This document shows, one piece after another, positions 4,655-63,362 of a DNA stretch of 64,000 nucleotides (positions within the stretch are counted from its first letter, which is position 1; each line of letters starts with the position of its first letter). The notes beneath the pieces were generated by a model, which did not search any database, had not been told where the DNA came from, and saw only the letters and a list, made by a program, of their open reading frames with translations. A program made the position numbers and the translations under genes. The stretch lies in IMG/VR virus record IMGVR_UViG_3300042905_004373, positions 1 to 64,000 of that record. One strand, given 5' to 3'. This DNA comes from a virus.

Positions 4655-5161
4655 ATGAACCTTAAAATTACTGCATACAAAACTGAATATGGCATTTGGG
4701 CATTCGATCATGAGCATCAAAATACAGTTGCCGAAGCACTCTGCAATGGAACTGAATTGGTTTTAGATGAGTATTTCCGAATTGGAATGAATCGTGATCC
4801 AAAACTTCAAGATGAGATTGAAGTTTATGTGAGTACTGAAGATTTTGATGATTCTGATACGGTTCTTTCATTTCAATCAACAAATGATCAAGGAACCACA
4901 TATCTTGATATGGTTCTCTTTGAAAAAGTATGGTTGTGCCCCTGGTTGCAATCTTATTTTGGATACAAACCAACCGAATTATATGTTAAACTGACACCAG
5001 TAAATCCTGGTCTCAAGAATTTTAATAAAAACTATGCGAATCCATTTGCCAAATATGTAAAAAAGAATGAGGATGAACTTGATAAAATGTTGGAAGGAAT
5101 TAGTGAAGAAGAATTGACTGATTTTATCAATTCAAGTTATAGTAATGATGGTAAGTTATAA
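4655..5161 (+). CDS. hypothetical protein
   Basis: 168 aa. Confidence 0.6.
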   Translation: MNLKITAYKTEYGIWAFDHEHQNTVAEALCNGTELVLDEYFRIGMNRDPKLQDEIEVYVSTEDFDDSDTVLSFQSTNDQGTTYLDMVLFEKVWLCPWLQSYFGYKPTELYVKLTPVNPGLKNFNKNYANPFAKYVKKNEDELDKMLEGISEEELTDFINSSYSNDGKL

Positions 5162-5188
5162 ATAACCCTAGAGGTCAAATCAAAATCA

Positions 5189-6217
5189 ATGAAGACTTTT
5201 AGAGAGTTTTTAGAAATATCAGAAAAATATTACGAACCAGATGAACCCTTACCATCAGGAAAGACTCCTTATGGTAAGGCGACTTCTTCGTATTATAGAC
5301 AAAAAGGTGAATTTAAGAGAGATCCAACTAGAACATCGGATCAAGCTTTTAGAATTGCAAGACAAGGTAGTAGAAGAAGAAATGAAGTCAGTCGAGGTGC
5401 TAACAATCCTGACTTTGATGCAAGACCTGATAAAACTGGTAAATATGACATAGATGCCGACGCAGGTTATAGTATGAGAGTGCGTGATACTAAGAATGAT
5501 CTTGAGATGAGAATTCGTCAAAAGGATCAGATTGCTCCATCTCAAGGTAATAAACCAGTTTATGATGTTGAGTGGTATAATCAGTCGGGAAAAAGAAGAC
5601 ATAATCCTGGTGAAGCAAGATCTGTTGCAAGAAATGTTGCAGATATGTGGAAGAATCAAGTTGCTCCACGTATTCCAAGTAACTCAATTTTAACAAACTT
5701 CCCCATCAGTAACGATACTAGTGAGCGTAATACAAGATCAAAATTATACTCTAAGATTGCTGGATTTGGCAAACCGGGAATGCAAGGAAGGCAATATGCC
5801 AATGTTGGTCGCAATCCATCACCAAGACAAGCGGCAAAGGGTGCTCAGCGCATTACACCACTTTCTGGAAATCTTGATCCAAAATGGGCAAGTAGGGATG
5901 AATTGGTTGATATGGACGCTAAAAGAATGCATTTACCTAGAGACAGTCGAATTAAATTGGATAAAGAATTTGGTAAACCAAGACAAATTGCACCAGCAAA
6001 ACCATCTAGACCTTCACAGACTAAAGCATTGAATGCATTAAAGTCAACTCCAAAAACCAAGGCACCATCTTTACCAAAACCTCCTACAGTAAAACCATCT
6101 GCAATTTCTAAAGTACCAAGAATTAAATTAAGAGGATCTGGAAAGGCAGCACTTGCTGGTGCAGCATTAACTGGTGCAGCTGCCTTAATTAACTCATTGC
6201 GATCCAAAAAAAAATAA
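5189..6217 (+). CDS. internal-protein-like highly basic protein with CTS-like N-terminus (MKTFREFLEISE)
   Basis: N-terminus matches T4 IP capsid-targeting sequence MKTYQEFIAE; I-S-E site fits gp21 protease L/I-x-E rule; extremely R/K/S/P-rich 342 aa. Confidence 0.7.
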   Translation: MKTFREFLEISEKYYEPDEPLPSGKTPYGKATSSYYRQKGEFKRDPTRTSDQAFRIARQGSRRRNEVSRGANNPDFDARPDKTGKYDIDADAGYSMRVRDTKNDLEMRIRQKDQIAPSQGNKPVYDVEWYNQSGKRRHNPGEARSVARNVADMWKNQVAPRIPSNSILTNFPISNDTSERNTRSKLYSKIAGFGKPGMQGRQYANVGRNPSPRQAAKGAQRITPLSGNLDPKWASRDELVDMDAKRMHLPRDSRIKLDKEFGKPRQIAPAKPSRPSQTKALNALKSTPKTKAPSLPKPPTVKPSAISKVPRIKLRGSGKAALAGAALTGAAALINSLRSKKK

Positions 6218-6250
6218 ATAAATAATATAAAGGCAAATTTAAGTAGACCT

Positions 6251-6868
6251 ATGAATAATCAAAATATCGCACATGATTTAAAAGAGTTATATTATACTCA
6301 AGTATATTCTGAAGGTGCATTTGGTAGTGCTTCTATGCCTGCTGCATCATCCGATGCTGCAAAAGGAGCTGCTGACAAACACAGAAAAGCAGCAGAAACG
6401 GCAACAAGTGCTAGTGATAGAAGGCGTCACAGAGATTCTGCAGCTCGTTATGAAGTAACTGCAAGACGCATGAGTATGACTGCAGATCACTATGAGTTTT
6501 TAACTGGTTATTTAATTGCAGAGAATTTTGCATCAGATTTAGATTCTGCTTATGCAATTATTGAAAATATGAGTGATGAATGGATGCAGTCAATCTTTGA
6601 GCAAAATTTAAATGAAGTTCGTGGACTTGGTAAGGTTCTATTCAGGGGTCTTTCAAATGCTCGTAATCGTGGTATGAGAGTAGATCCAGAAACTAAATCT
6701 TTCTATAAGGAAACACAATTAGATGATACGATTGAAACATTAAGGACTAGAATTCATCAGTCTAATCGAGGTGTGAAGGGTGCTCCTATTCCAGCAAATA
6801 ACCCAACTATTCGCAATTTAGAAGCAAGAAGAGATAAAATTAATCAAGTTAGAAATACTGCAAAATAA
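6251..6868 (+). CDS. hypothetical protein embedded in internal-protein array
   Basis: 205 aa, Ala/Arg-rich N-terminal half; no CTS motif. Confidence 0.55.
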   Translation: MNNQNIAHDLKELYYTQVYSEGAFGSASMPAASSDAAKGAADKHRKAAETATSASDRRRHRDSAARYEVTARRMSMTADHYEFLTGYLIAENFASDLDSAYAIIENMSDEWMQSIFEQNLNEVRGLGKVLFRGLSNARNRGMRVDPETKSFYKETQLDDTIETLRTRIHQSNRGVKGAPIPANNPTIRNLEARRDKINQVRNTAK

Positions 6869-6872
6869 TAAA

Positions 6873-7697
6873 GTGAAAACATTTCAAGAGTTTCTTGAGG
6901 AAAGTGCCCTTGCAAGATTGGCACTTCGGGGTATAAGATCTGCATCAAGAGTTGCAAGAACTGCTGATGGTGGAAGAAGAGTTACATCAGCAGCAAGAGC
7001 AACAAGAAATGTAAGATCAAGAGTAGTAGAACCAAAAGGAATGCCCGAAACAGGTACAACAAGATACTTTGATCGTAAATTAGGTAATAGCGATCTTGCA
7101 GCATTTAAAAAAGCAAATTTTAGAACAAGTCGATCTGACGCTAGAGATTATGACAGAACCAGACCACGGTCTTACAGTTATAAATCAACACCATCAGGAG
7201 AACCCTCTTTTTATACAACAATTGTTTCAAAATATCCGAATCAAGCGGCATATGCACAGAGACAATTGCCAGATAAAAAGTCTTATGGTTTCAATGCAAG
7301 AACACAACAAAGTGGATTTAAGGTAACTCCATCAAGAGAAAGAGCATTCTTTGCAAGTCAGTTAAGAAAACAACTGGGAGGAACAAGAACTCCTAAACAA
7401 GTTGCAGATATTGAAATTGGAACAAAATCAGATTATTATAGAAAAAATGATCCGACAGATCTGATCGGAAGAGGTAAAGAATTTGTTCAAACACTAAAAG
7501 ATGTTCCACAAAGACTTGCAACATCGAATGTGAAACCAGGTGATAAAGTCACTGCTCATCCAGCAGCAGTGATGCCAGGTGAAACAAATAAAGTAATGGG
7601 AAGAAAAAAAAGAGCAGATCTTTATAAGAGGATTGCAGGAAATAGGATGACAAAAATGAATCCTGTGACTCAGGCACTTGTAGGTACAATGCAATGA
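6873..7697 (+). CDS. internal-protein-like basic protein, paralog B (MKTFQEFLEES, GTG start)
   Basis: CTS-like N-terminus; shares 52-nt identical stretch and C-terminal similarity with 7694..8476. Confidence 0.7.
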   Translation: MKTFQEFLEESALARLALRGIRSASRVARTADGGRRVTSAARATRNVRSRVVEPKGMPETGTTRYFDRKLGNSDLAAFKKANFRTSRSDARDYDRTRPRSYSYKSTPSGEPSFYTTIVSKYPNQAAYAQRQLPDKKSYGFNARTQQSGFKVTPSRERAFFASQLRKQLGGTRTPKQVADIEIGTKSDYYRKNDPTDLIGRGKEFVQTLKDVPQRLATSNVKPGDKVTAHPAAVMPGETNKVMGRKKRADLYKRIAGNRMTKMNPVTQALVGTMQ

Positions 7698-8476
7698 AGA
7701 CATTTCAAGAGTTTAACGAAAGTGCTGCTATTGCAAGAGGTGCCTTAAAATTACTTAGATCAGCATCCAGAGCAGGTAAAGTCGCAAGAACCGCTGATGG
7801 TGGAAGAAGAGTTACATCAGCAGCAAGAGCAACAAGAAATGTAAAATCAAAAGCAGTTCCTCCTCGTGGTCCAGGTGAAAATACATGGGATAGACTAGAT
7901 GCTAGAAGAAGTATTTCAGATAAAGTAGTACTAAAAAAGGCAGGATTCAAGAGACGTGATCCTAACGAACAACCTAAAGAAACTGAAGCATGGGCATCAC
8001 CTCATCATTCCACTATGGTCCGCACTTATAAAAATCAAAGTGATTACGTTATAGATCAAGTACCACATAAAAATCTTGCATCTGGAAGAGCAACAAGAAA
8101 AGTAAGATCAACTGCATCTATAGTAAGACACGCAAAAGCATTAAGAAAGCAGTTAGGTGGTGATCGTACATCAAAACCAGTACATGATGTTGCAATTCTA
8201 AGTGATAGATCTTATGCTAAAAATGACCCAGAAGATTTGATCTCAAGAGGTAGAAGTTTCAGGAAAGAAGTTGGTGCCGTACCTAGTGCATTATGGAAAG
8301 CAGGTGCAAACCCAGGTGATAAAGTTACGTCAGAACCTTCAGGAATTATGAGTGGTGAAGACATAATAAAAGGAAAAGAAAAAAGAGACAAGATCTATAC
8401 GAAGGTATTGAAAGCAAAGATGAATCCAAAGACTGGTAAGACGATGGGTACATATAGAGATATGGATAATAACTAA
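7694..8476 (+). CDS. internal-protein-like basic protein, paralog C (MKTFQEFNES)
   Basis: ATGA overlap with paralog B; clear paralogy (ARTADGGRRVTSAARATRNV...; NDP.DLI.RG..F). Confidence 0.7.
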   Translation: MKTFQEFNESAAIARGALKLLRSASRAGKVARTADGGRRVTSAARATRNVKSKAVPPRGPGENTWDRLDARRSISDKVVLKKAGFKRRDPNEQPKETEAWASPHHSTMVRTYKNQSDYVIDQVPHKNLASGRATRKVRSTASIVRHAKALRKQLGGDRTSKPVHDVAILSDRSYAKNDPEDLISRGRSFRKEVGAVPSALWKAGANPGDKVTSEPSGIMSGEDIIKGKEKRDKIYTKVLKAKMNPKTGKTMGTYRDMDNN

Positions 8477-51882: not shown

Positions 51883-52082
51883 TTTAGAATCTTTTGACAG
51901 ATTATTTGAATATGAAAAACATGTTAGACTTATTGATAAATTGGATGTAGAAGAATTAAAAAATTTTGCAAAATTATACTGCAAATTATATTTGAAACAG
52001 CAAGAAGTTTTGGCATCAATTAATTAAAGTAAATCATAAATAATCAAAGAATGCTACTTTTAGAAAATAAAGAATTATACTA

Positions 52083-52925
52083 ATGTCAAAACCTTCAAGT
52101 AGACAAGAATTAATTGATTATTGTTTAAGAAGATTGGGAGCTCCAATATTGGAGATTAATATTGCAGATGAACAAATTGATGATTTAGTCGATGATGCAT
52201 TACAATACTTCTATGAAAGGCATTTTGATGGTGTCGAAAGAATGTATTTAAAATACAAAGTTACTCAAGATGATATAGATAGGGGAAAGGCAAAAAACAC
52301 AAGTGGTGTAGGAATTGTAACAACAACATCAGAAGCAAATATTTCGGGAATTGGAACGGTAACATATAATTTCTATGAAAATTCCAATTTCATTCAAGTT
52401 CCTGATAGTATAATTGGTATTGAAAAAGTTTTTAAATTTGACACTAGTTCTGTTTCTGGTGGAATGTGGAGTATAAAATATCAATTATTTTTAAATGATC
52501 TATATTACTTTAATTCAGTTGAACTTTTACAATATGCGATGGTGAAATCATATTTAGAAGATATTGATTTTCTATTATCTCCAGATAAGCAAATTAGATT
52601 TAACAAAAGACAAAATAGATTATATCTAGATATTGATTGGGGAGCAAAGTCTAAAGATACCTTTATAGTTATAGACTGCTACAGAATATTAAATCCCAAT
52701 GAATATACAAAAGTGTATAATGATAGTTTTTTGAAAAAATATTTAACTGCATTAATGAAAAGACAATGGGGGCAAAATTTAATTAAATTGAGAGGTGTAA
52801 AACTTCCAGGTGGTGTTGAATTAAATGGTGAAAGAATATACGAAGATGGTGAAAGGGAATTGCAGCAGATTAAAGAAAGAATGTCAATGGATTATGAATT
52901 ACCTCCTTACGATTTTATTGGATAA
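52083..52925 (+). CDS. 13: neck (head completion) protein gp13
   Basis: [41 protein letters not shown] ~ T4 gp13 [41 protein letters not shown]; C-terminal [12 protein letters not shown] also matches. Confidence 0.9.
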   Translation: [280 protein letters not shown]

Positions 52926-54325
52926 TGACACTTAATTCATTTTTTTTAAATAATTCCCCAAATGAGCAAAGACTCATACAAGATCTAGTAAATGAAAATC
53001 TAAGGTTAGCTGGAATTGAAATATACTATATTCCAAGAAAAATAGTAAGAAAAGAAACAGTACTTAAAGAAATTTCATCCTCAAAATTCAATGATAATTT
53101 TGCAATAGAAGCTTACTTAGTTAATTATGATGGATATACTGGACAAGGTGATTTATTAACTAAGTTTGGAGTTAGTTTGAAAGATGAAGTTAGTTTATTA
53201 ATTTCCAAAGAAAGATATGAAGATTTTATTTCATATTTCTTAGACGAAGATGATCCAGAAATAGAGTTAAATTCTCGACCAAGAGAAGGTGATTTGGTAT
53301 ATTTTCCTTTAGGAAAAAGATTATTTGAGGTTAAATTTGTTGAACATGAAAGTTCATTCTATCAACTTGGAAAACTTTATGTTTATGAATTGAAGTGTGA
53401 ACTATTTGAATATGAAGATGAGATAATAGATACTACAGTTGATGAAATTGATACCAGTATTAAGAATGAAGGATATATTACTGAAATTCAATTAACTAGA
53501 AGTGGTGAGACAGCAACTGCGATTGCTTCTATTGGAACTGGATATGTAAATAAGATTTATTTAACTAATGATGGTTATGGATATACTTCCACTCCATCTA
53601 TAGAAATATCTCCAGCACCTTTTGGTGGATCTAATGCATCTGCGGTTGCCATTACTTCATCATATGGTTCTTTCAGATCAATTAAGGAAATAATACTATC
53701 TAATCCAGGTTTTGGATATACTATCCCACCAAAAATTACAATAACTGGTGGTGGTGGTGTAGGTGCTTCGGCAACATGTGCTATAGAAACTGTTAATACA
53801 GGAATAACAAGCATATCTATGATTAACAAAGGTTCTGGATATATGTCTAAACCTTCAATATCCTTTTCTTCCCCAATTCCAGGTATTGGAGTAACACCTA
53901 TAGGAATATCTTCACTATCAAATATGGGACAGATTGAGGCAATATTGTTATCAAATTCTGGAATAGGTTATAGTTCTGCTCCGATTATAACCATTTCTCC
54001 ACCACCAACTTCAGGTATAGACACTTCTATTATCAATTATAAATTTAATGAAATTGTAACTGGATCTATATCAGGAACAACTGCAAGAGTAAAATCTTGG
54101 GATTTAGATACTAAAGTTTTAAAAGTTTCATTTATAGATGATGTTAGTGCAAAGGGATTTTATCCTGGAGAAATTATTACTGGATCTGATTCCAATACGT
54201 CTTATGCTACGGTATCATTTGATTCTTTTGATAATAATGATAAATATAGTGAGAATAAAACAATTGAAACAGAAGCTGAACAAATAATAGACTTCTCAGA
54301 AAAAAATCCATTTGGTACTTACTGA
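52925..54325 (+). CDS. 14: neck protein gp14 homolog (by position), expanded with GxGY Ig-like repeats
   Basis: follows gp13 with TAATG overlap; 466 aa vs ~256 in T4; C-terminal repeats DGYGYTSTPSIEISP / NPGFGYTIPPKITIT / NKGSGYMSKPSISFS / NSGIGYSSAPIITIS. Confidence 0.55.
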   Translation: MTLNSFFLNNSPNEQRLIQDLVNENLRLAGIEIYYIPRKIVRKETVLKEISSSKFNDNFAIEAYLVNYDGYTGQGDLLTKFGVSLKDEVSLLISKERYEDFISYFLDEDDPEIELNSRPREGDLVYFPLGKRLFEVKFVEHESSFYQLGKLYVYELKCELFEYEDEIIDTTVDEIDTSIKNEGYITEIQLTRSGETATAIASIGTGYVNKIYLTNDGYGYTSTPSIEISPAPFGGSNASAVAITSSYGSFRSIKEIILSNPGFGYTIPPKITITGGGGVGASATCAIETVNTGITSISMINKGSGYMSKPSISFSSPIPGIGVTPIGISSLSNMGQIEAILLSNSGIGYSSAPIITISPPPTSGIDTSIINYKFNEIVTGSISGTTARVKSWDLDTKVLKVSFIDDVSAKGFYPGEIITGSDSNTSYATVSFDSFDNNDKYSENKTIETEAEQIIDFSEKNPFGTY

Positions 54326-55173
54326 TGCTAGGAACTTATTTTTATCACGAAATTATACGAAGAACTGTTATATCTTTTGGTACTTTATTTAATAATATTA
54401 ATATAAGGCATAAAAATTCATCAGATGAAAATATAAGTGAAATAAAAGTTCCTCTTGCCTACGGACCAATTCAAAAGTTCTTAGCTAGAATTGAACAACA
54501 ACCAGAATTAAATAAACCTATTGCAATGACTTTGCCAAGAATGGCATTCGAAATGACCTCAATTCAGTATGATCCATCAAGAAAAGCAAATATTACTCAA
54601 ACATTTAAAGCTTCAGATGGAAATAATTTTAAAAAAGTATTTTTACCAGTTCCATATAATATTGGATTTCAACTTAATTTGATCAGTAAATTGCAAGATG
54701 ATGCTTTACAGGTTATAGAACAAATATTACCATATTTTCAACCAGCATTCAACTTAACTGTAAATTTAATAGATTCAATTGGAGAAAAAAGAGACATACC
54801 AGTTGTTTTGGATAGTGTATCTTTTACTGATGATTATGAGGGTGATTTTTCTACAAGAAGAATATTAATTTATACCTTTAACTTTACAGCAAAAACTTAT
54901 CTCTTTGGTCCAATTGCTGATAGTACTGATGGACTTATTCGTAAGGTTCAAGTTGATTATTATACTGGAACAGATACTCAAACTGCTAAGAGAGAGATGA
55001 GATATACTGTTACTCCCGATCCAATAGATGCTGAACCATATGAAGACTTTGGATTTAATGAATCAATAGAGATGTTCTTTGATGGTAAAGAATATAGTCC
55101 AACACAACAACAAGACATAGACTATATACAAAGTGGTAGTGGAACTGCTAATGAAGGTCCTATGCCCTTTTAA
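54325..55173 (+). CDS. 15: tail sheath stabiliser / completion protein gp15
   Basis: IEQILPYFQPAFNLTV ~ T4 gp15 VEQILPYFQPHFNTTM; N-terminus MLGTYFYHEIIRR ~ T4 MFGYFYNSSFRR. Confidence 0.85.
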   Translation: MLGTYFYHEIIRRTVISFGTLFNNINIRHKNSSDENISEIKVPLAYGPIQKFLARIEQQPELNKPIAMTLPRMAFEMTSIQYDPSRKANITQTFKASDGNNFKKVFLPVPYNIGFQLNLISKLQDDALQVIEQILPYFQPAFNLTVNLIDSIGEKRDIPVVLDSVSFTDDYEGDFSTRRILIYTFNFTAKTYLFGPIADSTDGLIRKVQVDYYTGTDTQTAKREMRYTVTPDPIDAEPYEDFGFNESIEMFFDGKEYSPTQQQDIDYIQSGSGTANEGPMPF

Positions 55174-55175
55174 TT

Positions 55176-55598
55176 ATGAAAAATAACTATGAAAATTTGG
55201 ATTCTACTTTTAACATTGAAAGTAAAATTGTTGAGGTAGAGAATGTAAATGATCAACTCAATATTTCTCCATTAAAACCAGATGACATTCAAAAAGATTA
55301 TGAGTACACTCGTGCTAATTTATACTCTTTAATTGAAAAGGGGCAAGAGGCAATTAATGGAATCATGGAACTTGCTGGAGAAGGTGGAAGTTCAAGAGCA
55401 TATGAAGTTGCTGGACAACTCATAAAAAGTGTTGGAGATGTAACAGATAAATTAATAGATTTACAGAAAAAACTTAAAGAAGTCGAAGAAGATACCATCA
55501 AAACGACAACTAATACTACGAATAATGCTATTTTTGTTGGTTCAACTTCAGAATTATCAAAATTACTCAAGCAAGGTTTTCTAAATAATAAAGAGTAA
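55176..55598 (+). CDS. 16: terminase small subunit gp16
   Basis: 140 aa; position and C-terminal NNAIFVGSTSELSKLLKQ ~ T4 gp16 NATVFMGSPTELMDEIG. Confidence 0.7.
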   Translation: MKNNYENLDSTFNIESKIVEVENVNDQLNISPLKPDDIQKDYEYTRANLYSLIEKGQEAINGIMELAGEGGSSRAYEVAGQLIKSVGDVTDKLIDLQKKLKEVEEDTIKTTTNTTNNAIFVGSTSELSKLLKQGFLNNKE

Positions 55599-55610
55599 CT
55601 TTTTAATTCT

Positions 55611-56900
55611 GTGAATAAGTTAAAGTCCCATAAAACAGTTGAACAAATTGCCAAGAAACATCGCCTTGAAGTTTCTTTTGTGAAGAATCAACTTAAAATG
55701 GGAATTCCTATTGAGCATGAACACACAAAAGATAAGGATCTTGCTACTGACATTGCTCTTCAACATCTTGATGAAATTCCCGATTACTATACACGACTAA
55801 AAAAAATGGAATCCTCAGCAAAGAAATCGCATAAAAAATATAAGGATGTTACTGAAGGAAAAAAAATGAAAGGTGAAGATCCTTGTTGGAAGGGATATCA
55901 GATGGTTGGTAAAAAGAAAAAAAATGGTAAAGAGGTTCCAAATTGCGTTCCAGTGAAGGAAGAAAATGGAATGATGAGATATTGCCCCAAATGTCAAAAA
56001 GATGAGACTCGTTCAGAGTGTAAGTATGGTCCAAAATTCTGGGATATGTATTCTTTACCAAAAACTTTGGGTAAAGATTATCATGCAAATTCGCCTCATC
56101 CAGGAAACTTTCCAGAATCTTATGATCATGAGCATTCGATGGCAAGATCAGAACTCTCAACTATTGCATCTGCAGTAAAAAGACTTAAGAAAAAAATGAA
56201 AGGTGAAGGAAATATAGAAGCATGGGTTCAATCAAAGATTACTAAAGCAGCAGATTATCTTGATACTGCAGCGGATTATGTTGATAGTGGTGAAATGAAA
56301 GAGCAGGTTGCAGGTACTGATTCTCCAGCAGATAACCCAAATATTGAAAGATTTAGTACAGCAATTAAAGCAATTGGAAAAAGAAAACTACCAGATTCTC
56401 AAAAAATAGGTGCTCTTAAACAAGCTGCACAAATATATCGTGGTATGCGTGAAGAAATTAGTTTTGAAATCGGTTCTGGTCATAAACAGGTACAAAAACA
56501 GGCAAAAATTAGAAATCTTGCAGAGAGAACTACTAACCAAAATGAAAAATCTGCTGCACAAAGAAAACTTTCTGGACCTTCATTACCTCTTGCAGATTCT
56601 TACGAATACTCAAATTGGAGAGTAGAATTTGGATTATCTGAAGATTGGCAAAAAGTAAATCGTAAAGATAAGACCGATGGATTAAGTCAAAAAGCAGTTA
56701 ATGCTTATCGTAAAGAAAATCCAGGTTCAAAACTTCAAACTGCAGTAACTGAAAAGAATCCAAAAGGAAAAAGGGCAGGGCGTCGTAAAAGATTCTGTAG
56801 TCGTATGTCTGGAATGAAGGACAAACTCACTTCTGCAAAAACTGCAAGAAATCCGGATTCAGATATCAATAAAACACTACGTCGTTGGAACTGTAACTAA
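55611..56900 (+). CDS. Lys-rich hypothetical protein with Cys clusters, inserted between terminase genes (GTG start)
   Basis: 429 aa; CWKGY...NCVP...CPKCQKDETRSEC; very basic C-terminus. Confidence 0.6.
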   Translation: MNKLKSHKTVEQIAKKHRLEVSFVKNQLKMGIPIEHEHTKDKDLATDIALQHLDEIPDYYTRLKKMESSAKKSHKKYKDVTEGKKMKGEDPCWKGYQMVGKKKKNGKEVPNCVPVKEENGMMRYCPKCQKDETRSECKYGPKFWDMYSLPKTLGKDYHANSPHPGNFPESYDHEHSMARSELSTIASAVKRLKKKMKGEGNIEAWVQSKITKAADYLDTAADYVDSGEMKEQVAGTDSPADNPNIERFSTAIKAIGKRKLPDSQKIGALKQAAQIYRGMREEISFEIGSGHKQVQKQAKIRNLAERTTNQNEKSAAQRKLSGPSLPLADSYEYSNWRVEFGLSEDWQKVNRKDKTDGLSQKAVNAYRKENPGSKLQTAVTEKNPKGKRAGRRKRFCSRMSGMKDKLTSAKTARNPDSDINKTLRRWNCN

Positions 56901-56901
56901 A

Positions 56902-57210
56902 ATGAAATCATTTCAACAGTTTATTTCAGAAAGCATCAATATTGCCGGAGATTTTAACGGCAATCTTTATATGAATTCTTCCGAACCAGAAACGGCAAAC
57001 GAATCTTTTCTTGCTGATGTAGTTTGGAAAGGAAGATTATATCGCATGGAAGTTGAAGGTAAAATGATGAACAAGAATGAACTTGCTGAACAACTTCAAA
57101 GAGAATATCCTGGGGCAATTGTTCATAACATTTACCCAGTAACAGAAAATTCATTAACAGTTAAAAACGCACAAAGATACAGACCAGAAAGATTATCATG
57201 GAGTGATTGA
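56902..57210 (+). CDS. small protein with CTS-like N-terminus MKSFQQFISES (internal-protein-like)
   Basis: N-terminal motif shared with 5189/6873/7694/8507 genes; I-S-E cleavage-like site. Confidence 0.55.
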   Translation: MKSFQQFISESINIAGDFNGNLYMNSSEPETANESFLADVVWKGRLYRMEVEGKMMNKNELAEQLQREYPGAIVHNIYPVTENSLTVKNAQRYRPERLSWSD

Positions 57211-57213
57211 TTC

Positions 57214-58815
57214 ATGGCACAATTTAATAAGAATGAACAAGATTTCCTGAATCAGGAAAGAACACTGTTTGAAGTGAATATGATCGCCAATAAGAATGGC
57301 GAAGTCGTTACAATTGATAATCCATTTCCAGTATCTCTTGGAAGTTCCAATATTACTATTAATGGTAATATTACAATTCCAGGAATAGTAACAGTTACAA
57401 GCACTCCAGATAATCCAGTTCATAATCACATAGTTGAAGTTGGGACAGGTGGAACATTAACAACTCCATATCTTCCAGTCGGTATTTCTACATTACTGAA
57501 TACTGTAGGTATTGGAACCACTGGGCAAGTATCAATCAACCTCAACAATTCACCAGTCAGCACCACAAATCCATTTCCTGTTACTGGAAATATTGATATT
57601 GAATTACCACCAATAGCAACTGATGCATTTGGTCGTTTAAGAACTTCAACACCACTTACACTTTTTGATAGTTCCCACAGATACAGGGACAATAATCTTT
57701 GGAGTAGTCTAGTTGTTGGTACTGGTTCAACAGTTGGATTTGTAACTGCACAAGGTTTAGTAAATTTAACTGTTGGTGTTGGAAGCACCGCATCAATCAT
57801 CAGAGAAACGACAAAAGTATTCTCATATCAACCAGGAAAGTCATTAGAAATTTTAACTACTTTTGTAATGAACCCAGCAAAAGCAAATCTTCGCCAAAGA
57901 GTAGGATACTTTGGTGCAGATAATGGAATGTATCTGGAACTTGATGGAAGTAGTTTATATTTTGTAGAAAGAACTTATGTTCCGGGAATTACAACAGAAA
58001 CAAGAGTAGCACAAGCAGATTGGAATATTGATACGATGCTTGGTGCAGGGCACCGCAATCCATCAGAGGTCACATTAGATATTAGTAAGGCACAAATTCT
58101 TTGGATGGATATTGAATGGTTGGGACTTGGAACAGTTAGATTGGGTTTTGTAGTTGATGGTAAGTTTATTCATTGTCATTCATTTCATCACGCAAATAGA
58201 ATTAACACAACTTACATCACAACAGCATCACTACCTTTAAGATATGAAATTGCTAATACGGGAATTACAACCAGTGCAAGCACACTCAAACAAGTTTGCT
58301 CTACTGTAATTTCAGAAGGTGGATATGAACTTCGTGGATTGCAGCAAGCAATAGGAACACCAGTTCAAACACCAGTTGATTTAACAACAGCAGGAACTTA
58401 TTATACAGTTTCATCAATTCGTCTTAAAACAACGCCAAATAGATTAGATGCAATTGTAATTCTAACTGCACTTTCTATTTTAGGTATTACAAACAATGCA
58501 ACCTATAACTGGCAAGTAAGAGCAAGTGGAACGTCTAATGGTGGAACTTGGACTGATGCTGGTCTAGATAGTGCTGTTGAATATAAGATTGGTGGAGGAA
58601 CTTATACTGGCGGAAGAATACTAGCATCTGGATATACGTATGGTTCCAATCAAGGTTCATCATCAGTAGATATTCTTAAAGAGGCATTATTTAAGTTTCA
58701 GTTGGAAAGGGATGCATTAACAGGAACACCTTATGAACTTTCTATTGTATGTGCTTCTAATGCTAATGGTGCAGATATTCACGCTTCTATGGACTGGGAA
58801 GAAATTAGTAGGTAA
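57214..58815 (+). CDS. hypothetical Thr/Gly-rich beta-rich protein (533 aa), probable virion protein
   Basis: tightly packed between CTS-protein and large terminase; composition typical of structural proteins. Confidence 0.6.
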   Translation: MAQFNKNEQDFLNQERTLFEVNMIANKNGEVVTIDNPFPVSLGSSNITINGNITIPGIVTVTSTPDNPVHNHIVEVGTGGTLTTPYLPVGISTLLNTVGIGTTGQVSINLNNSPVSTTNPFPVTGNIDIELPPIATDAFGRLRTSTPLTLFDSSHRYRDNNLWSSLVVGTGSTVGFVTAQGLVNLTVGVGSTASIIRETTKVFSYQPGKSLEILTTFVMNPAKANLRQRVGYFGADNGMYLELDGSSLYFVERTYVPGITTETRVAQADWNIDTMLGAGHRNPSEVTLDISKAQILWMDIEWLGLGTVRLGFVVDGKFIHCHSFHHANRINTTYITTASLPLRYEIANTGITTSASTLKQVCSTVISEGGYELRGLQQAIGTPVQTPVDLTTAGTYYTVSSIRLKTTPNRLDAIVILTALSILGITNNATYNWQVRASGTSNGGTWTDAGLDSAVEYKIGGGTYTGGRILASGYTYGSNQGSSSVDILKEALFKFQLERDALTGTPYELSIVCASNANGADIHASMDWEEISR

Positions 58816-58820
58816 CAACT

Positions 58821-60521
58821 ATGTCTGATAATATCTATTTGGGAAATCCAAACCTGAAAAGGGCAAATACACAAATACAATTCACTGAAGAACAAATCAT
58901 TGAATTCTTAAAGTGTAAGGAAGATCCTGTTTATTTTGCAAAGAATTATATCAAGATTGTTTCTCTGGATCATGGTCTTGTTCCGTTTGAAATGTATCCA
59001 TTTCAAGAGAAACTTGTAAAGAACTTCCACGAAAATAGATTTAACATTTGTAAGATGCCACGGCAGACTGGTAAATCAACCACCTGCGTATCCTACCTGC
59101 TCCACTATGCCGTGTTTAATGATAATGTGAATATTGCTATCTTAGCAAACAAAGCATCTACTGCAAGGGATCTTTTGGGAAGATTGCAACTTGCATATGA
59201 GAATCTACCGAAGTGGATGCAGCAGGGTATTATATCATGGAATAAAGGATCACTTGAATTAGAAAATGGATCTAAAATTTCATCCAACTCAACCTCATCA
59301 TCTGCTGTTCGTGGTGGATCTTATAATGTCATCTTTTTGGACGAATTTGCTTTCATTCCAAATCACATTGCTGATGACTTCTTTGCATCTGTTTATCCTA
59401 CTATTTCTTCTGGACAGAGTACGAAGGTAATTATTGTTTCCACACCTCGCGGTATGAATCACTTCTACCGCATGTGGCATGACGCTGAGAGGGGTAAGAA
59501 TGAATATATTCCTACAGATGTCCATTGGTCGGAAGTGCCCGGTAGAGACGAAGCATGGAAGGCACAGACGATTGCAAACACTAGTGAGCAGCAGTTCAAG
59601 GTTGAGTTTGAATGTGAATTCTTAGGTTCGGTCAATACATTAATTAATGCGGCAAAACTTCGCAACCTAGTTTATGATGATCCAATAAAAAGAAATGCTG
59701 GACTGGATGTTTATGAACATCCAAAAGAAGACCATAATTATTTGATTACGGTTGATGTTGCTCGCGGTATTGGTAATGATTACTCTGCCTTTATTGTGTT
59801 TGATATCACAAATTTTCCATATAAAGCTGTTGCAAAATATAGAAATAATGAAATTAAACCAATGCTATTCCCAAGTATTATTCATGAAGTTGCAAAGGGA
59901 TATAATAATTCTTGGTTATTAATTGAAGTCAATGATATTGGAGATCAGGTAGCAAATATTCTTCATTTTGATTTAGAGTATGATAATGTTTTAATGTGCT
60001 CTATGAGAGGTAGGGCAGGACAAATTGTTGGTTCTGGTTTTAGTGGTAAAAAATCTCAACTAGGTGTCAGAATGACTGCCGCAGTTAAGAAGTTAGGTTG
60101 TTCTAACTTGAAAACTTTGATGGAAGATGATAAATTATTAACTAATGATTATGATATTATCTCAGAACTGACTACTTTTGCACAAAAACACAATTCTTTT
60201 GAGGCAGAAGAAGGTTGTAATGATGATTTAGCAATGTGCCTTGTAATTTTTTCTTGGTTGGTTGCTCAGGATTACTTTAAAGAAATGACGGACAATGATG
60301 TTCGTAAAAGAATTTATGAGGAGCAGAAAAATCAAATTGAACAAGATATGTCACCTTTTGGATTTATTTCAGATGGGTTGGAAGATATGAATGTAACAAT
60401 TGATGTTGAAACGGGAGATAGGTGGATTGTAGCAACAAAAAATGGTGATGAAAATAATCCTTTAGAGACATGGAATTTAGATGAATATGGTGATAGGTCA
60501 TATATGTGGGAATATAATTAA
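58821..60521 (+). CDS. 17: terminase large subunit gp17
   Basis: Walker A PRQTGKST, FLDEFAF Walker-B-like, nuclease half; 566 aa. Confidence 0.9.
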   Translation: MSDNIYLGNPNLKRANTQIQFTEEQIIEFLKCKEDPVYFAKNYIKIVSLDHGLVPFEMYPFQEKLVKNFHENRFNICKMPRQTGKSTTCVSYLLHYAVFNDNVNIAILANKASTARDLLGRLQLAYENLPKWMQQGIISWNKGSLELENGSKISSNSTSSSAVRGGSYNVIFLDEFAFIPNHIADDFFASVYPTISSGQSTKVIIVSTPRGMNHFYRMWHDAERGKNEYIPTDVHWSEVPGRDEAWKAQTIANTSEQQFKVEFECEFLGSVNTLINAAKLRNLVYDDPIKRNAGLDVYEHPKEDHNYLITVDVARGIGNDYSAFIVFDITNFPYKAVAKYRNNEIKPMLFPSIIHEVAKGYNNSWLLIEVNDIGDQVANILHFDLEYDNVLMCSMRGRAGQIVGSGFSGKKSQLGVRMTAAVKKLGCSNLKTLMEDDKLLTNDYDIISELTTFAQKHNSFEAEEGCNDDLAMCLVIFSWLVAQDYFKEMTDNDVRKRIYEEQKNQIEQDMSPFGFISDGLEDMNVTIDVETGDRWIVATKNGDENNPLETWNLDEYGDRSYMWEYN

Positions 60522-60580: not shown

Positions 60581-62752
60581 ATGCCGCTAAATTTAGCATC
60601 TCCTGGAATTGTAGTAAGGGAAATTGATTTAACCACTGGAAGAACACAACCATCGTCCAATAAAACTGGAGCAATTGTTGCACCCTTTGCTAAAGGACCT
60701 GTAGAAGTACCAACTTTAGTAGAAAATGAGAACGATTTATTAAAAAATTTCGGAGAGCCATATGCTACCGATAAACATTATGAGCATTGGTTAAGTGCAT
60801 CATCATATCTAGCATATGGTGGATCTTTAAGAGTAGTAAGAGCAGATGATGTTGATTTAAGAAATGGATTTGTTCCTACTTCAGATGGTGCTGCTTCTAG
60901 TGTAAAAATCAAAAGTTTAGAGCACTATAAAGAACTGGGATATGATGAAAACACTCTCAATGGAGTTGTAGTTGCATCAAGAAATCCAGGTTCTTGGTCT
61001 AATGGCATTAGAGTAGCAATTATTGACAGTAAAGCAGATCAAACTTTATCTGGAATTGTTACCTCTAGTTTATCAATTGGAATGGGAGTAACTCAATCAG
61101 TTGATGGAAGACAACTTGCAGGTGTTGGATCTACTTCTGTTCTTGATGGATATCTCAAAGGAATCATTACCGAAATTGGTTCTTCATCCATTTCGGTAAA
61201 AGTTCTCAATCATGTATCTAATGTTGGAAATGAAAGTGTAGTAGATTATCAACCATCTGGTGTATATGCATTTTCAACGTCTGGGACAGTAGGATTTACT
61301 TCAACTTCACAGACAACTTCATTCGGATCAACTACTTATACATCTACACTTGATTGGTTTGATCAACAAACTATAGGTCTTACAAGTACTTCATCAATTT
61401 ATTGGAATAATATTGCACCAAGACCAGGAACTTCTGCATATGCTGCAGCAAGAAACTCAAGATTTGATGAAGTTCATGTAGTTGTAATTGATGCTCTTGG
61501 AACAATCACAGGTAATGCCGGAGCAATTTTAGAAAAGCACACAGGTCTTTCTAAAGCATCTAATGCAACATTCTCCGTTGGAGATCCTTCATATTGGAGA
61601 TCTTATCTTTCAAGCAATTCTTCATATATCTTTGGACTTGGAGCACCTACAGGAATTGTAACTACAGGATACTCTTCCGATTTTAATCTTGCAGATGATG
61701 TTGCATGGGATCAAGAAGCAGATGGAATAATCTTTGCAGCCTCTGGATCATCAACAAACACTTTAACTGAAGGTAAAGATTATAGTGGAAATGCTAACAT
61801 TGAAGAAACTAATTCCCTTAAAGTTGATCTTTCAGGTCTTTCATCTGGATATGATTTATTTGAAAATACTGAAAACTTTAAAGTAGATTTTCTCTTAATG
61901 GGTTCTGCCGCATATGAGAAAGAAACTGCACAGGCACTTGCAAATAAAATTATTTCTGTTGCAGAATTGAGAAAGGATGCAATTGCATTTGTTTCACCAT
62001 ATAGAGGTTCTCAACTAACTGACACTTCTTCTCAAACCAGTGTGACAGTGAGATCTGCTGCGGATATTACAGATAAACTGATTTCATTCTATTCCCCAGT
62101 AGCATCTTCATCATATGGAGTATTTGATAGTGGATATAAGTACATGTATGATAGATTCTCAAATACTTTCAGATATGTCCCATTAAATGGTGATATGGCT
62201 GGACTTTGTGCTCGTAATGATATTAATAACTTCCCATGGTATTCTCCAGCAGGAACAACAAGAGGTGCGATTTTAAATGCAGTTAAACTTGCATACAATC
62301 CAACAAAATCTCAAAGAGATGTTCTTTATAGCAATAGAATCAATCCAGTAATCTTCTCACCTGGAGCTGGAATTATTCTATTTGGAGATAAGACTGGTTT
62401 AGCAAAAGCATCAGCATTTGATCGTATTAATGTTCGTCGTCTTTTTGTATATCTTGAGGATGCTATTTCAAGAGCAGCAAAGGATGTTTTATTTGAATTT
62501 AATGATGAGATTACCAGAACAAACTTTGTAAATACTATTGAACCATTCCTTCGTGATGTTCAATCAAAGAGAGGAATTTTTGATTATATCGTTGTTTGTG
62601 ATGAAACAAACAACACTAGTGCAGTGATCGACAATAATGAATTTATTGCCGATATTTACATCAAACCATCAAGATCAATCAATTATATTGGACTTAATTT
62701 TATTGCCACCAAAACTGGTGTTGATTTCCAAGAAGTCATCGGTAACTTTTAA
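60581..62752 (+). CDS. 18: tail sheath protein gp18
   Basis: C-terminal region ...PLNGDMAGLCARND...SPAGTTRGAIL...FDRINVRRLF...IVVCDETNNTSAVIDNNEF...SINYIGLNFIATKTG closely parallels T4 gp18. Confidence 0.92.
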   Translation: MPLNLASPGIVVREIDLTTGRTQPSSNKTGAIVAPFAKGPVEVPTLVENENDLLKNFGEPYATDKHYEHWLSASSYLAYGGSLRVVRADDVDLRNGFVPTSDGAASSVKIKSLEHYKELGYDENTLNGVVVASRNPGSWSNGIRVAIIDSKADQTLSGIVTSSLSIGMGVTQSVDGRQLAGVGSTSVLDGYLKGIITEIGSSSISVKVLNHVSNVGNESVVDYQPSGVYAFSTSGTVGFTSTSQTTSFGSTTYTSTLDWFDQQTIGLTSTSSIYWNNIAPRPGTSAYAAARNSRFDEVHVVVIDALGTITGNAGAILEKHTGLSKASNATFSVGDPSYWRSYLSSNSSYIFGLGAPTGIVTTGYSSDFNLADDVAWDQEADGIIFAASGSSTNTLTEGKDYSGNANIEETNSLKVDLSGLSSGYDLFENTENFKVDFLLMGSAAYEKETAQALANKIISVAELRKDAIAFVSPYRGSQLTDTSSQTSVTVRSAADITDKLISFYSPVASSSYGVFDSGYKYMYDRFSNTFRYVPLNGDMAGLCARNDINNFPWYSPAGTTRGAILNAVKLAYNPTKSQRDVLYSNRINPVIFSPGAGIILFGDKTGLAKASAFDRINVRRLFVYLEDAISRAAKDVLFEFNDEITRTNFVNTIEPFLRDVQSKRGIFDYIVVCDETNNTSAVIDNNEFIADIYIKPSRSINYIGLNFIATKTGVDFQEVIGNF

Positions 62753-62771: not shown

Positions 62772-63362
62772 ATGGCAACTAGACAACAACTAAATCCACC
62801 TCCACTAAGAAAGATTACTGACTTCAAAAGTAAGTTAACTGGTGGTGGTGCTCGTTCTAACTTATTTGAAGTCGTTCTTTCTTTCCCAGATATTGCTGCA
62901 GCAGACATTAATGTTCTAGATAAAGCAAGATTTTTGGTCAAAGGTGCAAATTTACCAGCATCAAATGTAGCTCCACTAGATGTTCCATTTAGAGGAAGAA
63001 CTTTAAAAGTTGCTGGAGACAGATCATTTGAAAGTTGGACAGTAACTGTAATCAATGACACCGATTTTTCAATCCGTTCTGCTATGGAAAATTGGATGAA
63101 TAAAATTAACAGAGTTTCTGATAACACTGGTGAAACTAATCCAGCATCATATACTGCAGATGCATTTGTATACCAACTTGATCGTGATGGATCTACTTTA
63201 AGAGCATATCATTTCTATGACATTTTCCCAACATCAATTGGAGCAATTCCTTTGGATTATAATACAAGTACAATTCAGGAATTCCCCGTAGAGTTTCAAA
63301 TTCTTTGGTGGGAAGCTGTTAAAGGTAATTCACCTTCTGCTGGTGGGGAAGACATCAACTAA
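62772..63362 (+). CDS. 19: tail tube protein gp19
   Basis: NLFEVVLSFPD / VAGDRSFESWTVTVINDTD ~ T4 gp19 NLFQVEISYLG / VAGDRTFDDWTVTVMNDEA. Confidence 0.9.
   Translation: MATRQQLNPPPLRKITDFKSKLTGGGARSNLFEVVLSFPDIAAADINVLDKARFLVKGANLPASNVAPLDVPFRGRTLKVAGDRSFESWTVTVINDTDFSIRSAMENWMNKINRVSDNTGETNPASYTADAFVYQLDRDGSTLRAYHFYDIFPTSIGAIPLDYNTSTIQEFPVEFQILWWEAVKGNSPSAGGEDIN

Follow-up and report, generated by a model that had tools for sequence, protein, structure and literature searches.

A conserved three-gene cassette between the terminase genes of a T4-like cyanomyovirus and its putative particle-associated products

Gene content and probable transcription of the gp16-gp17 interval

The analysed window, a stretch of 64,000 nucleotides (IMG/VR virus record IMGVR_UViG_3300042905_004373, positions 1 to 64,000), belongs to a T4-like cyanomyovirus whose nearest relative is Synechococcus phage S-SRM01, and the nearest relatives in general are members of the Kyanoviridae. 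In type, the phage corresponds to the freshwater S-SRM01. The genes of interest are arranged in the order gp13-gp14-gp15-gp16-A-B-C-gp17-gp18-gp19. The left border of the cassette is formed by gp16, the terminase small subunit (TerS; 55176..55598; phrog_445, E 4.5e-52, with a weak match to Pfam DNA_Packaging), and the right border by gp17, the large subunit (TerL; 58821..60521; Terminase_6N and Terminase_6C, phrog_2). As the first-pass annotation had stated, three ORFs are located between them: A (55611-56900), B (56902-57210) and C (57214-58815). These ORFs, both terminase genes and all protein segments described below are encoded on the plus strand. The spacers, previously given as 2–4 nt, were approximately right, the measured distances in gp16/A/B/C/gp17 being 12, 1, 3 and 5 nt. 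Independent gene calls on identical metagenome contigs reproduced the products of 429, 102 and 533 aa.

A late-promoter-like sequence, CATAAATA (52036..52043, plus strand), is located 40 nt upstream of gp13 and probably marks the start of a late unit, gp13-gp14-gp15-gp16-A-B-C-gp17. The heptamer ATAAATA occurs in 11 copies on the plus strand of the window and in none on the minus strand; two of the sites are at 52036 and 54240 and the next one is at 60539. No late-promoter-like site was detected on the plus strand between 54240 and 60521, and no terminator-like site on the same strand in 52200-60500. The absence of such sites supports the proposed co-transcription with the packaging genes as probable, i.e. 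A, B and C probably share a late transcript with the neighbouring genes.

The cassette had been regarded as an insertion splitting the terminase operon. The three genes indeed lie between gp16 and gp17, but the site is a published hot-spot and the cassette not a novel insertion: the g15/16-g17/18 interval is described as hyper-variable in cyanomyoviruses (Millard 2009, as cited in PMC2984593 and PMC3037559), and 4-14 genes are reported for the g15-g18 interval, with a content that differs among related phages. The extra genes of the window are placed in exactly this position, between the gp15/gp16 and gp17/gp18 homologues, and in the same phage family as the region defined by Millard et al. 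(2009) and Sullivan et al. (2010). The three gene families, T4-GC119 (A), T4-GC1019 (B) and T4-GC1020 (C), are shared with this region, as in Syn33; in the 2010 study the first was present in 15 of 16 cyanophage genomes, and the other two only in Syn33.

Gene content of the interval varies among the relatives, from three genes in the window, four in S-SRM01, five in S-CREM1 and six in S-RIM32 to about 12-13 in S-RIM8, S-RIM12 and Syn33. Comparison of the gp16-gp17 junctions, which had been recommended as a check, revealed that the order A-B-C recurs in five named cyanophages (S-SRM01, S-RIM8, S-RIM12, Syn33 and Sf-FS3), while S-CREM1 retains B-C between the terminase genes, S-RIM32 carries C without B, and S-SCSM1 carries B without C. 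Host-derived metabolic genes are present in the same interval of S-RIM8, S-RIM12, Syn33 and Sf-FS3. None of those sought (petE, PTOX, zwf, gnd) was found in 55611-58815, and the window differs from the described region in containing only the three-gene core, also without ferredoxin and endonuclease genes. Well over a hundred T4-like cyanophages carry a cassette of this type. Thus, the three products cannot be called new, as had been suggested: all of them belong to known PHROG or Pfam DUF families, with B homologues in 135 phage records and C homologues in roughly 140 of 173 matching records (query coverage of at least 62% among the matches listed).

The modular protein A and the targeting-like N-terminus of B

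ORF A starts with GTG and encodes a basic protein (pI 9.7) of the DUF6321/T4-GC119 family (phrog_727). Its description as a Lys-rich protein with Cys clusters was confirmed by a Lys content of 14.9% and seven Cys (residues 92, 112, 125, 128, 137, 396 and 428). Two Pfam domains scored above their cut-offs, DUF5661 (57.9 bits) and DUF6321 (47.9 bits, cut-off 28.5), and the latter could be aligned across nine cyanophage and two podovirus homologues. The basic chain of A is assembled from small, shuffled modules: (i) DUF5661 (residues 11-68; 55641..55814), (ii, iii) two Cys mini-modules, CWKGY...VPNCVP (91-114) and YCPKC...SECKYGPKFW (123-143), which span 55881..56039 (phrogs 28131, 9737, 4359 and 36547), (iv) a middle module (172-247; 56124..56351; phrog_32745) and (v) the very basic DUF6321 (352-426; 56664..56888), with the end ...RRWNC.

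Each of several modules was also identified in other protein contexts, repeatedly behind the targeting-like motif that opens B (see below). At three IMG/VR loci (L014, L045 and L053) a module 82-84% identical to A residues 3-82 is preceded by MKTFQEFILE and a 22-residue Cys-rich linker, and at another locus DUF5661 constitutes a 96-aa protein with the motif at its start. The middle module was found in a 126-aa environmental protein starting with MKTFSEFINE (43% identity). DUF6321 stands alone in the podoviruses HTVC010P and P-SCSP1o (in the latter flanked by the genes of the major capsid protein and gp11), and is combined with the motif in mini-proteins of S-CREM1 (a 91-aa ORF) and two IMG/VR loci. 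The Cys mini-modules are present in the homologues of S-RIM8, S-RIM12, Syn33 and Sf-FS3; they also occur in haloarchaeal and Pseudanabaena phages.

Alignment of the homologues pointed to a candidate prohead-protease site, L-S-E (residues 342-344; 56634..56642), just before DUF6321. Glu directly precedes this domain in all nine aligned cyanomyovirus homologues, six of which have [LIV]-x-E, while the two podovirus proteins in the alignment are stand-alone and without a cleavage-like site. The protease may release the basic DUF6321 end of A at LSE344.

The family of A has been detected in purified cyanophage virions: T4-GC119 of S-SM1 is listed as "Structural protein" with 13 peptides in virion mass spectrometry, and ORF29 of S-SCSM1, an A homologue, as "virion protein" on the basis of a mass-spectrometry virion proteome. 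In the cryo-EM structure of P-SCSP1u the DUF6321 protein is not among the ordered components. The A protein of the window is without the targeting motif, though an 82%-identical relative carries it. Because the family is found in purified virions and modules of A are elsewhere fused to a T4-type targeting peptide, we infer that A is probably an internal head protein, in agreement with the earlier suggestion of a particle protein.

ORF B encodes a small conserved cyanomyovirus protein (pI 5.2; phrog_1742). All of its 135 homologue records are from cyanophages, and a set of 1.84 billion representatives contains only 55 clusters (50% identity) of this family. The first ten residues, MKSFQQFISE (56902..56931), resemble the T4 capsid-targeting sequence MKTYQEFIAE (Mullaney & Black 1996), in which targeting has been mapped to residues 4 and 7 and processing to residues 8 and 10. 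Six of the ten residues are identical and four are conservatively changed; F4, F7, I8 and E10 keep all four mapped positions (aromatic at 4, Phe at 7, Ile/Leu at 8, Glu at 10). [quoted passage not shown] Among the 120 closest B homologues, nearly all retain the motif.

Four ORFs of the window begin in this way (56902, 5189, 6873 and 7694), compared with 0.004 expected among 1,115 candidate starts, and the likeness is therefore not due to chance. The other three form a cluster outside the cassette (5189..8476) and are very basic: they start with MKTFREFLEISE (5189-6217, pI 10.5), MKTFQEFLEES (6873-7697, pI 10.7) and MKTFQEFNES (7694-8476, pI 10.5), and the sequence TATAAATA (5157-5164) is located just before the first of them. 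Within the phage collection their homologues were found only in S-SRM01, and they had no PHROG matches. In IMG/VR the motif was detected at 120 or more loci (128 ORFs, most with a pI above 9). Environmental T4-like contigs carry motif-led ORFs between gp16 and gp17, some of them with modules of A or the B core.

The distribution of the motif, as read from the sequences, is that expected of a modular signal. It remains at residue 1 in three long B variants, in which an insert of 30-155 residues is followed by [LV]xE before the B core, and it also heads the DUF5661, DUF6321 and middle-module proteins. Using an HMM of the B family, we identified the B core at the C-terminus of a motif-led protein encoded between gp16 and gp17 of an environmental contig (domain E 2.4e-5); a weak match (E about 4e-3, 14 bits) was obtained at the C-terminus of the motif-led proteins of L014, L045 and L053. 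Since related contigs fuse the B core and the DUF5661 of A in one motif-led protein, B may associate with the motif-less A.

The window ends in gp20; in S-SRM01 the portal, the gp21 protease, the gp22 scaffold and gp23 are encoded just downstream. The gp22 of this phage contains 19 [LI]xE sites (8 expected by shuffling), and FLSE|A is present in its gp23 (residues 52-54). By likeness to T4, B would bind the gp22 scaffolding core, be enclosed in the prohead and be cut after Glu10 by the gp21-type protease.

Predicted structure and relatives of C

ORF C, present in both the ORF list and the gene calls, had been described as a Thr/Gly-rich beta protein. Its content of 12.4% Thr and 9.8% Gly and a prediction of almost entirely beta structure confirm this. 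Residues 1-40 (57214..57333) carry the motif MAQ[FW]NKNxQDFLNQERxLFEV...NPFPV, which is shared by clades whose identity in the remainder of the protein is only about 30%, and presumably form an attachment segment; phrog_8198 shares residues 1-32 only, and tblastn with the first 52 residues retrieved 143 cyanophage records. A Thr/Asn/Val/Gly-rich stretch of beta repeats of variable length follows (residues 41-130; 57334..57603). Units of the form VSIxNTVSISNTSFY...NPVTxVTVGG have been gained or lost among close relatives, so that protein length varies between 444 and 677 aa; a repeat number that changes in this way is typical of fibre shafts.

In the predicted structure, residues about 163-368 (57700..58317) form a concanavalin-A-like, GH16-like beta-sandwich (beta-jelly-roll), and residues about 376-532 (58339..58809) a second beta-sandwich domain. 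The relative orientation of the two domains is uncertain (pTM of the model 0.53; Foldseek TM about 0.3-0.5). Foldseek gave single alignments over both domains, with low TM-scores (0.3-0.55), to proteins of uncultured Caudovirales, haloarchaeal tailed viruses and giant viruses; at scores in the same range, both domains also matched the receptor-binding domains of mycobacteriophage TM4 gp23 and of clostridial neurotoxins. The best PDB match was the C-terminal domain of TM4 gp23 (PDB 9n6a, TM about 0.3), with which C shares the combination of beta domains in a receptor-binding module, predicted in the case of C. Compared with GH16 glycoside hydrolases and legume-type lectins, C has the concanavalin-A-like fold at 6-11% sequence identity; it differs in the absence of the GH16 catalytic motif E-x-D-x(x)-E, and also has an additional beta domain at the distal end and, at the N-terminus, a repeat shaft and a phage-specific motif. 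The label "virion structural protein" on C homologues is a PHROG or GenBank annotation.

A conserved N-terminal segment, a repetitive shaft and lectin-like distal domains are features of tail fibres and receptor-binding proteins. The most likely identity of C is an external fibre or adhesin, which would consist of an N-terminal attachment motif, a variable beta-repeat shaft, a lectin-like domain of the ConA/GH16 fold that lacks the glycosidase motif, and the second beta-sandwich as its distal part. Its structure matches speak against the earlier idea that it is loaded during packaging. The gene of C lies beside the neck and terminase genes, away from those for the baseplate and fibres (29065-51676); the neck, the head and the tail are candidate attachment sites on the particle. 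The suggested comparison with capsid decoration, fibre and jelly-roll folds yielded a ConA/GH16-like beta-sandwich and receptor-binding matches at low TM, but no Hoc or Soc family: neither A, B nor C had a Pfam or PHROG match to Hoc (Ig-like) or Soc. A decoration role for C is possible by analogy with these proteins.

Interpretation of the cassette

The three genes are best read as a conserved late-gene set in a known hyper-variable interval, encoding particle-associated proteins rather than packaging enzymes (a probability of roughly 55%); nothing in the data ties A, B or C mechanistically to the terminase. The view of the first-pass annotation, a module of proteins loaded into or onto the capsid, holds in so far as the A family is present in virions and B carries the motif; it is at odds with the probable external location of C and the acidity of B.

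The recurrence of the same families in the same order across several Kyanoviridae genera, together with the occurrence of T4-GC119 in nearly all of the genomes mentioned above, makes it very improbable that an otherwise intact terminase operon recently received the cassette as a mobile insertion by horizontal transfer. Its G+C content (0.35-0.37) is continuous with that of gp17 and gp18, and no endonuclease, repeat or tRNA is present at its borders in the window. Such an origin would agree with the adjacency of genes 16 and 17 in T4 and in one environmental contig (L063), and with the presence, at this interval in related phages, of genes for homing or HNH endonucleases and for endonuclease VII. 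An enzymatic function of C, i.e. a GH16-like glycanase or depolymerase that degrades host surface polysaccharide instead of a passive lectin or adhesin, is improbable too. The acidic pair D299-x-E301, at alternate sequence positions, would suit an enzyme. In place of the GH16 motif E-[ILV]-D-[IVAF]-[VILMF]0-1-E, however, C reads W297-M-D299-I-E301-W when the positions are assigned from sequence, so that the first Glu is Trp in the clade of the window; only E301-W302 is invariant across two clades, Pfam gave no GH16 match, and the matches to lectins and receptor-binding domains are almost equally good.

A more serious competitor, still unlikely in our estimation, concerns B, which may be not capsid cargo but an assembly factor or adaptor for the fibre-like C, or a non-structural late protein, with an N-terminus that is simply a family-conserved segment. 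The protein is acidic (pI 5.1 after the predicted cut) and strongly conserved, whereas the T4 internal proteins turn over fast and are highly basic, a property typical of IPI-III though not a strict requirement; in this respect the basic ORFs at 5189-8476 are closer to them. B is encoded between the terminase genes and not at a locus like those of the T4 internal proteins, and the gene that directly follows it is almost always C or one for a different virion protein occupying the position of C. Residues 11-25 are as conserved as residues 1-10, and therefore conservation of the N-terminus alone is no proof of a detachable signal. In S-SCSM1 the B homologue (ORF30) is listed as "hypothetical protein" between two neighbours (ORF29 and ORF31) listed as "virion protein", which suggests that the 45 virion proteins detected did not include it. 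On the other side, the motif matches the T4 sequence at every functionally mapped position, stays at the extreme N-terminus despite the inserts, with [LV]xE before the core, and heads three very basic ORFs of the window and many gp16-gp17 proteins elsewhere; moreover, C occurs without B in S-RIM32 and B without C in S-SCSM1. Like the T4 internal proteins, B has a late gene, in a phage whose nearest relative encodes the gp21 protease and the gp22 scaffold. The earlier recognition of a capsid-targeting-like start was thus correct, and the comparative data support a targeting role, the propeptide function being predicted. Packaging of B agrees with the motif and these comparisons, and is at odds with its acidity and the annotation of its S-SCSM1 homologue.

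A broader and more tentative proposal, which we consider possible but rather doubtful, is that aquatic T4-like phages use the gp16-gp17 interval as a dedicated cargo bay. Its module-shuffled late proteins would enter the prohead by means of a T4-type targeting peptide and then be trimmed at [LIV]xE sites; the shuffled mini-modules would be DUF5661, the CWKGY and CPKC Cys modules, DUF6321 and the B core. Within the cassette the targeting peptide is present only on B, which would carry the motif-less, basic, multi-module A into the head. If this proposal is true, the cargo would be injected with the DNA and may act as effectors, e.g. anti-defence or DNA-protecting proteins.

Gene content and transcription of the gp16-gp17 interval

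Three plus-strand ORFs, A (55611-56900; 429 aa, GTG start), B (56902-57210; 102 aa, N-terminus MKSFQQFISES) and C (57214-58815; 533 aa), separate gp16/TerS (55176-55598) from gp17/TerL (58821-60521). The ORF list and the neighbours identified by Pfam and PHROG scans, i.e. gp13 (52083-52925), gp14 (52925-54325), gp15 (54325-55173), gp18 (60581-62752) and gp19 (62772-63362), confirmed this arrangement as described in the first-pass annotation, and independent gene calls on identical metagenome contigs gave the same A, B and C products. The spacers are, in order, 12, 1, 3 and 5 nt. As had also been noted, A is Lys-rich with several Cys (14.9% Lys, seven Cys; pI 9.7) and C is rich in Thr (12.4%) and Gly (9.8%); the pI of B is 5.2.

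Several neighbouring genes have features of their own. Within the gp14 product (466 aa), an additional ~200 residues (approximately 172-390) consist of Gly/Ser/Ile-rich repeat units with PHROG matches to virion structural proteins of giant size, to tail fibres and to baseplate wedge subunits, which makes it a neck protein with an unusual amount of decoration. Upstream of the neck genes lie two giant ORFs, 31013-42721 (3,902 aa) and 44372-51676 (2,434 aa; Pfam DUF4815 in the contig gene table), which presumably encode baseplate or fibre proteins.

The heptamer ATAAATA, the core of cyanophage and T4 late promoters, occurs 11 times on the plus strand of the whole window and not once on the minus strand. 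The plus-strand sites are mostly placed immediately 5' of genes (5158, 6214/6218, 27953, 28633, 42738, 52036, 60539); the site at 52036 is 40 nt 5' of gp13, that at 60539 precedes gp18, that at 5158 precedes the first of three basic ORFs discussed below, and a further one (54240) lies within the end of gp14. This bias is compatible with ATAAATA being the core of a late promoter and with late transcription in a single direction. The full T4 late box TATAAATA is, overall, rarer than expected by chance (3 observed versus 7.8 expected), but its three copies are all intergenic and on the plus strand. Since neither ATAAATA nor a plus-strand terminator-like hairpin was found between 54240 and 60521, A, B and C are likely co-transcribed with gp15, gp16 and gp17 as late genes; the earlier proposal of co-transcription with the packaging genes thus remains likely, judging from the sequence. 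In scans for sigma-70 promoters and intrinsic terminators, neither exceeded the shuffled expectation.

The window DNA is approximately 78% identical to that of the freshwater Synechococcus phage S-SRM01 (Kyanoviridae), and its protein relatives are cyanomyoviruses throughout. Comparison of gp16-gp17 junctions revealed that the same families recur in the same interval: A, endonuclease VII, B and C in S-SRM01; a 178-179-aa protein (T4-GC403 in Syn33), an A-like protein, B and C, followed by petE and other genes, in S-RIM8, S-RIM12 and Syn33; and, in part, a 174-aa counterpart of the 178-179-aa protein, B, C and a short DUF6321 ORF in S-CREM1, and an 85-aa ORF, C and a short DUF6321 ORF, without B, in S-RIM32. 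A 104-aa ORF located 3' of C in S-RIM32 was considered as a B homologue and rejected, as it encodes a DUF6321 protein. In Sf-FS3, within a compared stretch that excludes gp16 and gp17, A-like, B and C genes are followed by PTOX and two dehydrogenase genes. The endonuclease VII gene of S-SRM01 (5295-5705 of the compared locus) and a homing endonuclease between its gp14 and gp15 are both absent from the window.

The gp16-gp17 interval is described as a variable hot-spot of cyanomyoviruses in PMC2984593 and PMC3037559 (citing Millard 2009), and the G+C content of the cassette is continuous with that of the flanking genes. Given these observations and the families shared with relatives, the suggestion of a new insertion splitting the terminase operon has to be abandoned; the cassette is conserved and is an ordinary resident of a variable region that had been described before. 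Both the interval and all three families had been catalogued before (B and C as T4-GC1019 and T4-GC1020, recorded from Syn33 only and without proteomics in Sullivan 2010), and the basic picture of the interval, whose variability was already known, is left unchanged.

Domains of A and predicted fold of C

Protein A contains DUF5661 (residues 11-68) and DUF6321 (residues 352-426), both exceeding the Pfam cut-offs, as well as further small modules detected by PHROG matches (about 61-129 and 172-226). The C-terminal DUF6321 part is the element common to members of T4-GC119, a cluster that 15 of 16 cyanophage genomes contain and whose genes are 276-2985 nt long (Sullivan 2010 supplement). The A family is present in virions: T4-GC119 is listed there as 'Structural protein', with 13 peptides from S-SM1 virions, and the A homologue of S-SCSM1 (ORF29, 517 aa), a phage whose virion proteome determined by mass spectrometry comprises 45 proteins (S-SCSM1 paper), is annotated 'virion protein'.

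Two podoviruses have stand-alone DUF6321 genes with products of 84-93 aa, namely the T7-like Prochlorococcus phage P-SCSP1o (4959-5213, flanked by the genes for the major capsid protein and for tail tubular protein gp11) and the Pelagibacter phage HTVC010P (4947-5228). No decoration protein is reported in the cryo-EM structure of P-SCSP1u; the DUF6321 protein, if in that particle, does not form an ordered part of the shell. Across 11 aligned sequences, a Glu directly precedes the DUF6321 domain in all nine cyanomyovirus homologues, six of which show [LIV]-x-E; the two podovirus proteins, which are stand-alone, have no such site. In the window, the border reads GLSE344|DWQK, a candidate cleavage site.

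The window ends within gp20. In S-SRM01 the genes continue 3' with the portal, two small ORFs, the head maturation protease, a gp22-type scaffold and the major head protein. The scaffold contains 19 [LI]xE sites (8.0 expected from shuffling) and the protease nine (3.1 expected), and gp23 carries FLSE|A at residues 52-54. This site content fits a T4-like cleavage specificity.

Relatives of C number more than 8,000 in metagenomes. They are 444-677 aa long, with VSIxNTVSISNTSFY...NPVTxVTVGG units gained or lost in the N-terminal third. A second clade, approximately 30% identical, comprises Syn33_107 and the 'virion structural protein' of S-RIM2 and S-RIM12 (on C homologues this is an annotation label); it lacks the repeats and keeps the first ~21 residues, MAQWNKNTQDFLNQERTLFEV. 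A tblastn search with C residues 1-52 matched 143 cyanophage records.

AlphaFold2 modelling of full-length C from a shallow alignment (34 sequences, at least 74% identity) was unusable (mean pLDDT 44). Rebuilding the alignment with the second clade gave a model of residues 125-533 with two beta domains (pLDDT 73) and a lectin-like fold. Foldseek spanned both domains in single alignments, with low TM-scores, to proteins of uncultured Caudovirales, haloarchaeal tailed viruses and giant viruses and to S-TIM5 structural proteins; further matches were the receptor-binding domain of mycobacteriophage TM4 gp23 and those of clostridial neurotoxins. Because C lacks the motif E-x-D-x(x)-E of GH16 (the local sequence is W297-M-D299-I-E301, and only E301-W302 is invariant across clades within this stretch), it is not a GH16 member; from the fold matches it looks like a lectin-type fibre or adhesin. 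The comparison with fibre and decoration folds proposed in the first-pass annotation thus returned receptor-binding and structural proteins, at low TM-scores, and points to an external fibre rather than to a protein loaded into the capsid.

An assignment of C to T4-GC969, the Synechococcus-enriched virion structural protein of Sullivan 2010, was discarded, since that gene spans ~19 kb. S-SCSM1 ORF31, a virion protein in the C position, shows no detectable similarity to C, and the receptor-binding protein of S-SCSM2R is a different gene (S-SCSM2R paper). Sequence searches of the PDB with A, B and the C profile gave no meaningful match.

A T4-type targeting-like motif on B and on other proteins

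Phage T4 directs proteins to the capsid with the sequence MKTYQEFIAE (PMC8442874); residues 4 and 7 are the main determinants of targeting, and residues 8 and 10 those of processing (PMC9026906). The corresponding MKSFQQFISE of B shows six identities and four conservative changes and keeps F4, F7, I8 and E10, in agreement with its original identification as a capsid-targeting motif. It was found in 8/8 aligned B proteins (that of the window and seven from isolates) and in nearly all of the best 120 B homologues. The alternative annotation of B as NTF2-like (a JGI label; Pfam DUF1348, weak, E 0.0037) was dropped, since the match occurred in only one of eight B homologues and was treated as chance.

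Four ORFs in the window start with M-K-[ST]-[FY]-x-[EQ]-F, versus 0.004 expected among 1,115 candidate starts. The remaining three are tandem and very basic (pI 10.5-10.7), with starts at 5189 (342 aa, N-terminus MKTFREFLEISE), 6873 (274 aa, MKTFQEFLEES) and 7694 (260 aa, MKTFQEFNES), and a perfect late box TATAAATA (5157-5164) stands ahead of them. A 205-aa ORF (6251-6868) lies between the first and the second, and in 15 IMG/VR loci a homologue of it is found together with motif-led ORFs. Homologues of the cluster were found within the phage collection in S-SRM01 only, and a PHROG search gave zero matches. The basic ORFs resemble T4 internal proteins, and the cluster (5157-8476) looks like an internal-protein locus. 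Directly 3' of it is a tRNA nucleotidyltransferase gene (8718-9449; phrog_24229, E 3e-45).

Three lines of comparative sequence evidence indicate that the motif is probably a detachable signal. B clusters are few (55 among 1.84 billion representatives), and three longer members (P0364, P0365, P0367) keep MKSF[KQ][QE]F at residue 1, followed by a basic insert of 30-155 residues, [LV]-x-E and the B core 'SVNISGDFNGNLY...'. In another relative of the B core (P0389, 118 aa), a lipoprotein-type signal peptide (...LFSCKSG) replaces the motif, which suggests that the core has a secreted or cellular context as well.

Scanning IMG/VR for M-K-T-[FY]-x-E-F-[ILMV]-x-E (ORFs of at least 50 aa; at least 120 loci) revealed at least 128 ORFs starting with the motif, most with a pI above 9; 58 of the 120 loci listed share proteins with the window. 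In eight loci (L014, L039, L045, L053, L100, L109, L111, L117) a motif-led ORF lies directly 3' of gp16, with gp17 downstream in all except L117, where the locus ends. The motif-led ORFs of L014, L045 and L053 carry DUF5661, 82-84% identical to A residues 3-82, behind MKTFQEFILE and a 22-residue Cys linker, both lacking in A of the window. With the B-family HMM, a B core was located at the C-terminus of motif-led proteins, that of L039 matching with domain E 2.4e-5 and those of L014, L045 and L053 weakly (E about 4e-3). Thus, one motif-led protein of the gp16-gp17 interval appears to join the N-terminal module of A with the B core there; in L014, L045 and L053 it is a 363-aa protein with a Cys-rich linker, DUF5661 and a C-terminal B-like domain. 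Modules of A are also motif-led elsewhere: DUF5661 in a 96-aa protein (L107), the middle module in L029, and DUF6321 in L088, L125 and a 91-aa ORF of S-CREM1 (MKTYNDFITE...).

Recurrent basic families of 150-200 aa starting MKTF[KQ]EF... (e.g. ...LDESSLS, ...MVECYSI) were also detected among L012-L131. They occur in contigs without any protein common to the window, so use of the motif may extend well beyond cyanomyoviruses. In the literature searched, we found neither a T4-type targeting motif on cyanophage proteins nor its repeated association with the gp16-gp17 interval, nor its association with the A modules and the B core.

A probable cassette of particle-associated proteins

In the best reading, the products of A, B and C are particle-associated and their genes form a late cassette that is conserved. 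A would be an internal, modular, basic head protein, possibly cleaved before DUF6321; B would be motif-led cargo, possibly partnering A, with a predicted cut behind Glu10 leaving Ser11 at its N-terminus (SINIAGDFNGNLY...); and C would be an external lectin-like fibre. This reading is weakened by the lack of a targeting-like motif in A of the window, by the B homologue of S-SCSM1, which has no virion-protein flag, and by the acidic character of B.

In oceans and lakes, few viruses are as abundant as T4-like cyanophages, and to our knowledge the contents of their capsids besides DNA are almost unknown. If T4 capsid targeting works in cyanophages, phrog_1742 (the B family), DUF6321/T4-GC119, DUF5661 and the basic ORFs at 5189-8476 are candidate injected proteins. 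The N-termini of these hypothetical families would then predict the fate of the proteins, a simple sequence rule would allow encapsidated effectors to be found in metagenomes, and there would be a possible route for loading foreign proteins into cyanophage heads. C, with a repeat shaft that differs among close relatives, is a candidate host-recognition determinant, which bears on the host range of Synechococcus phages.
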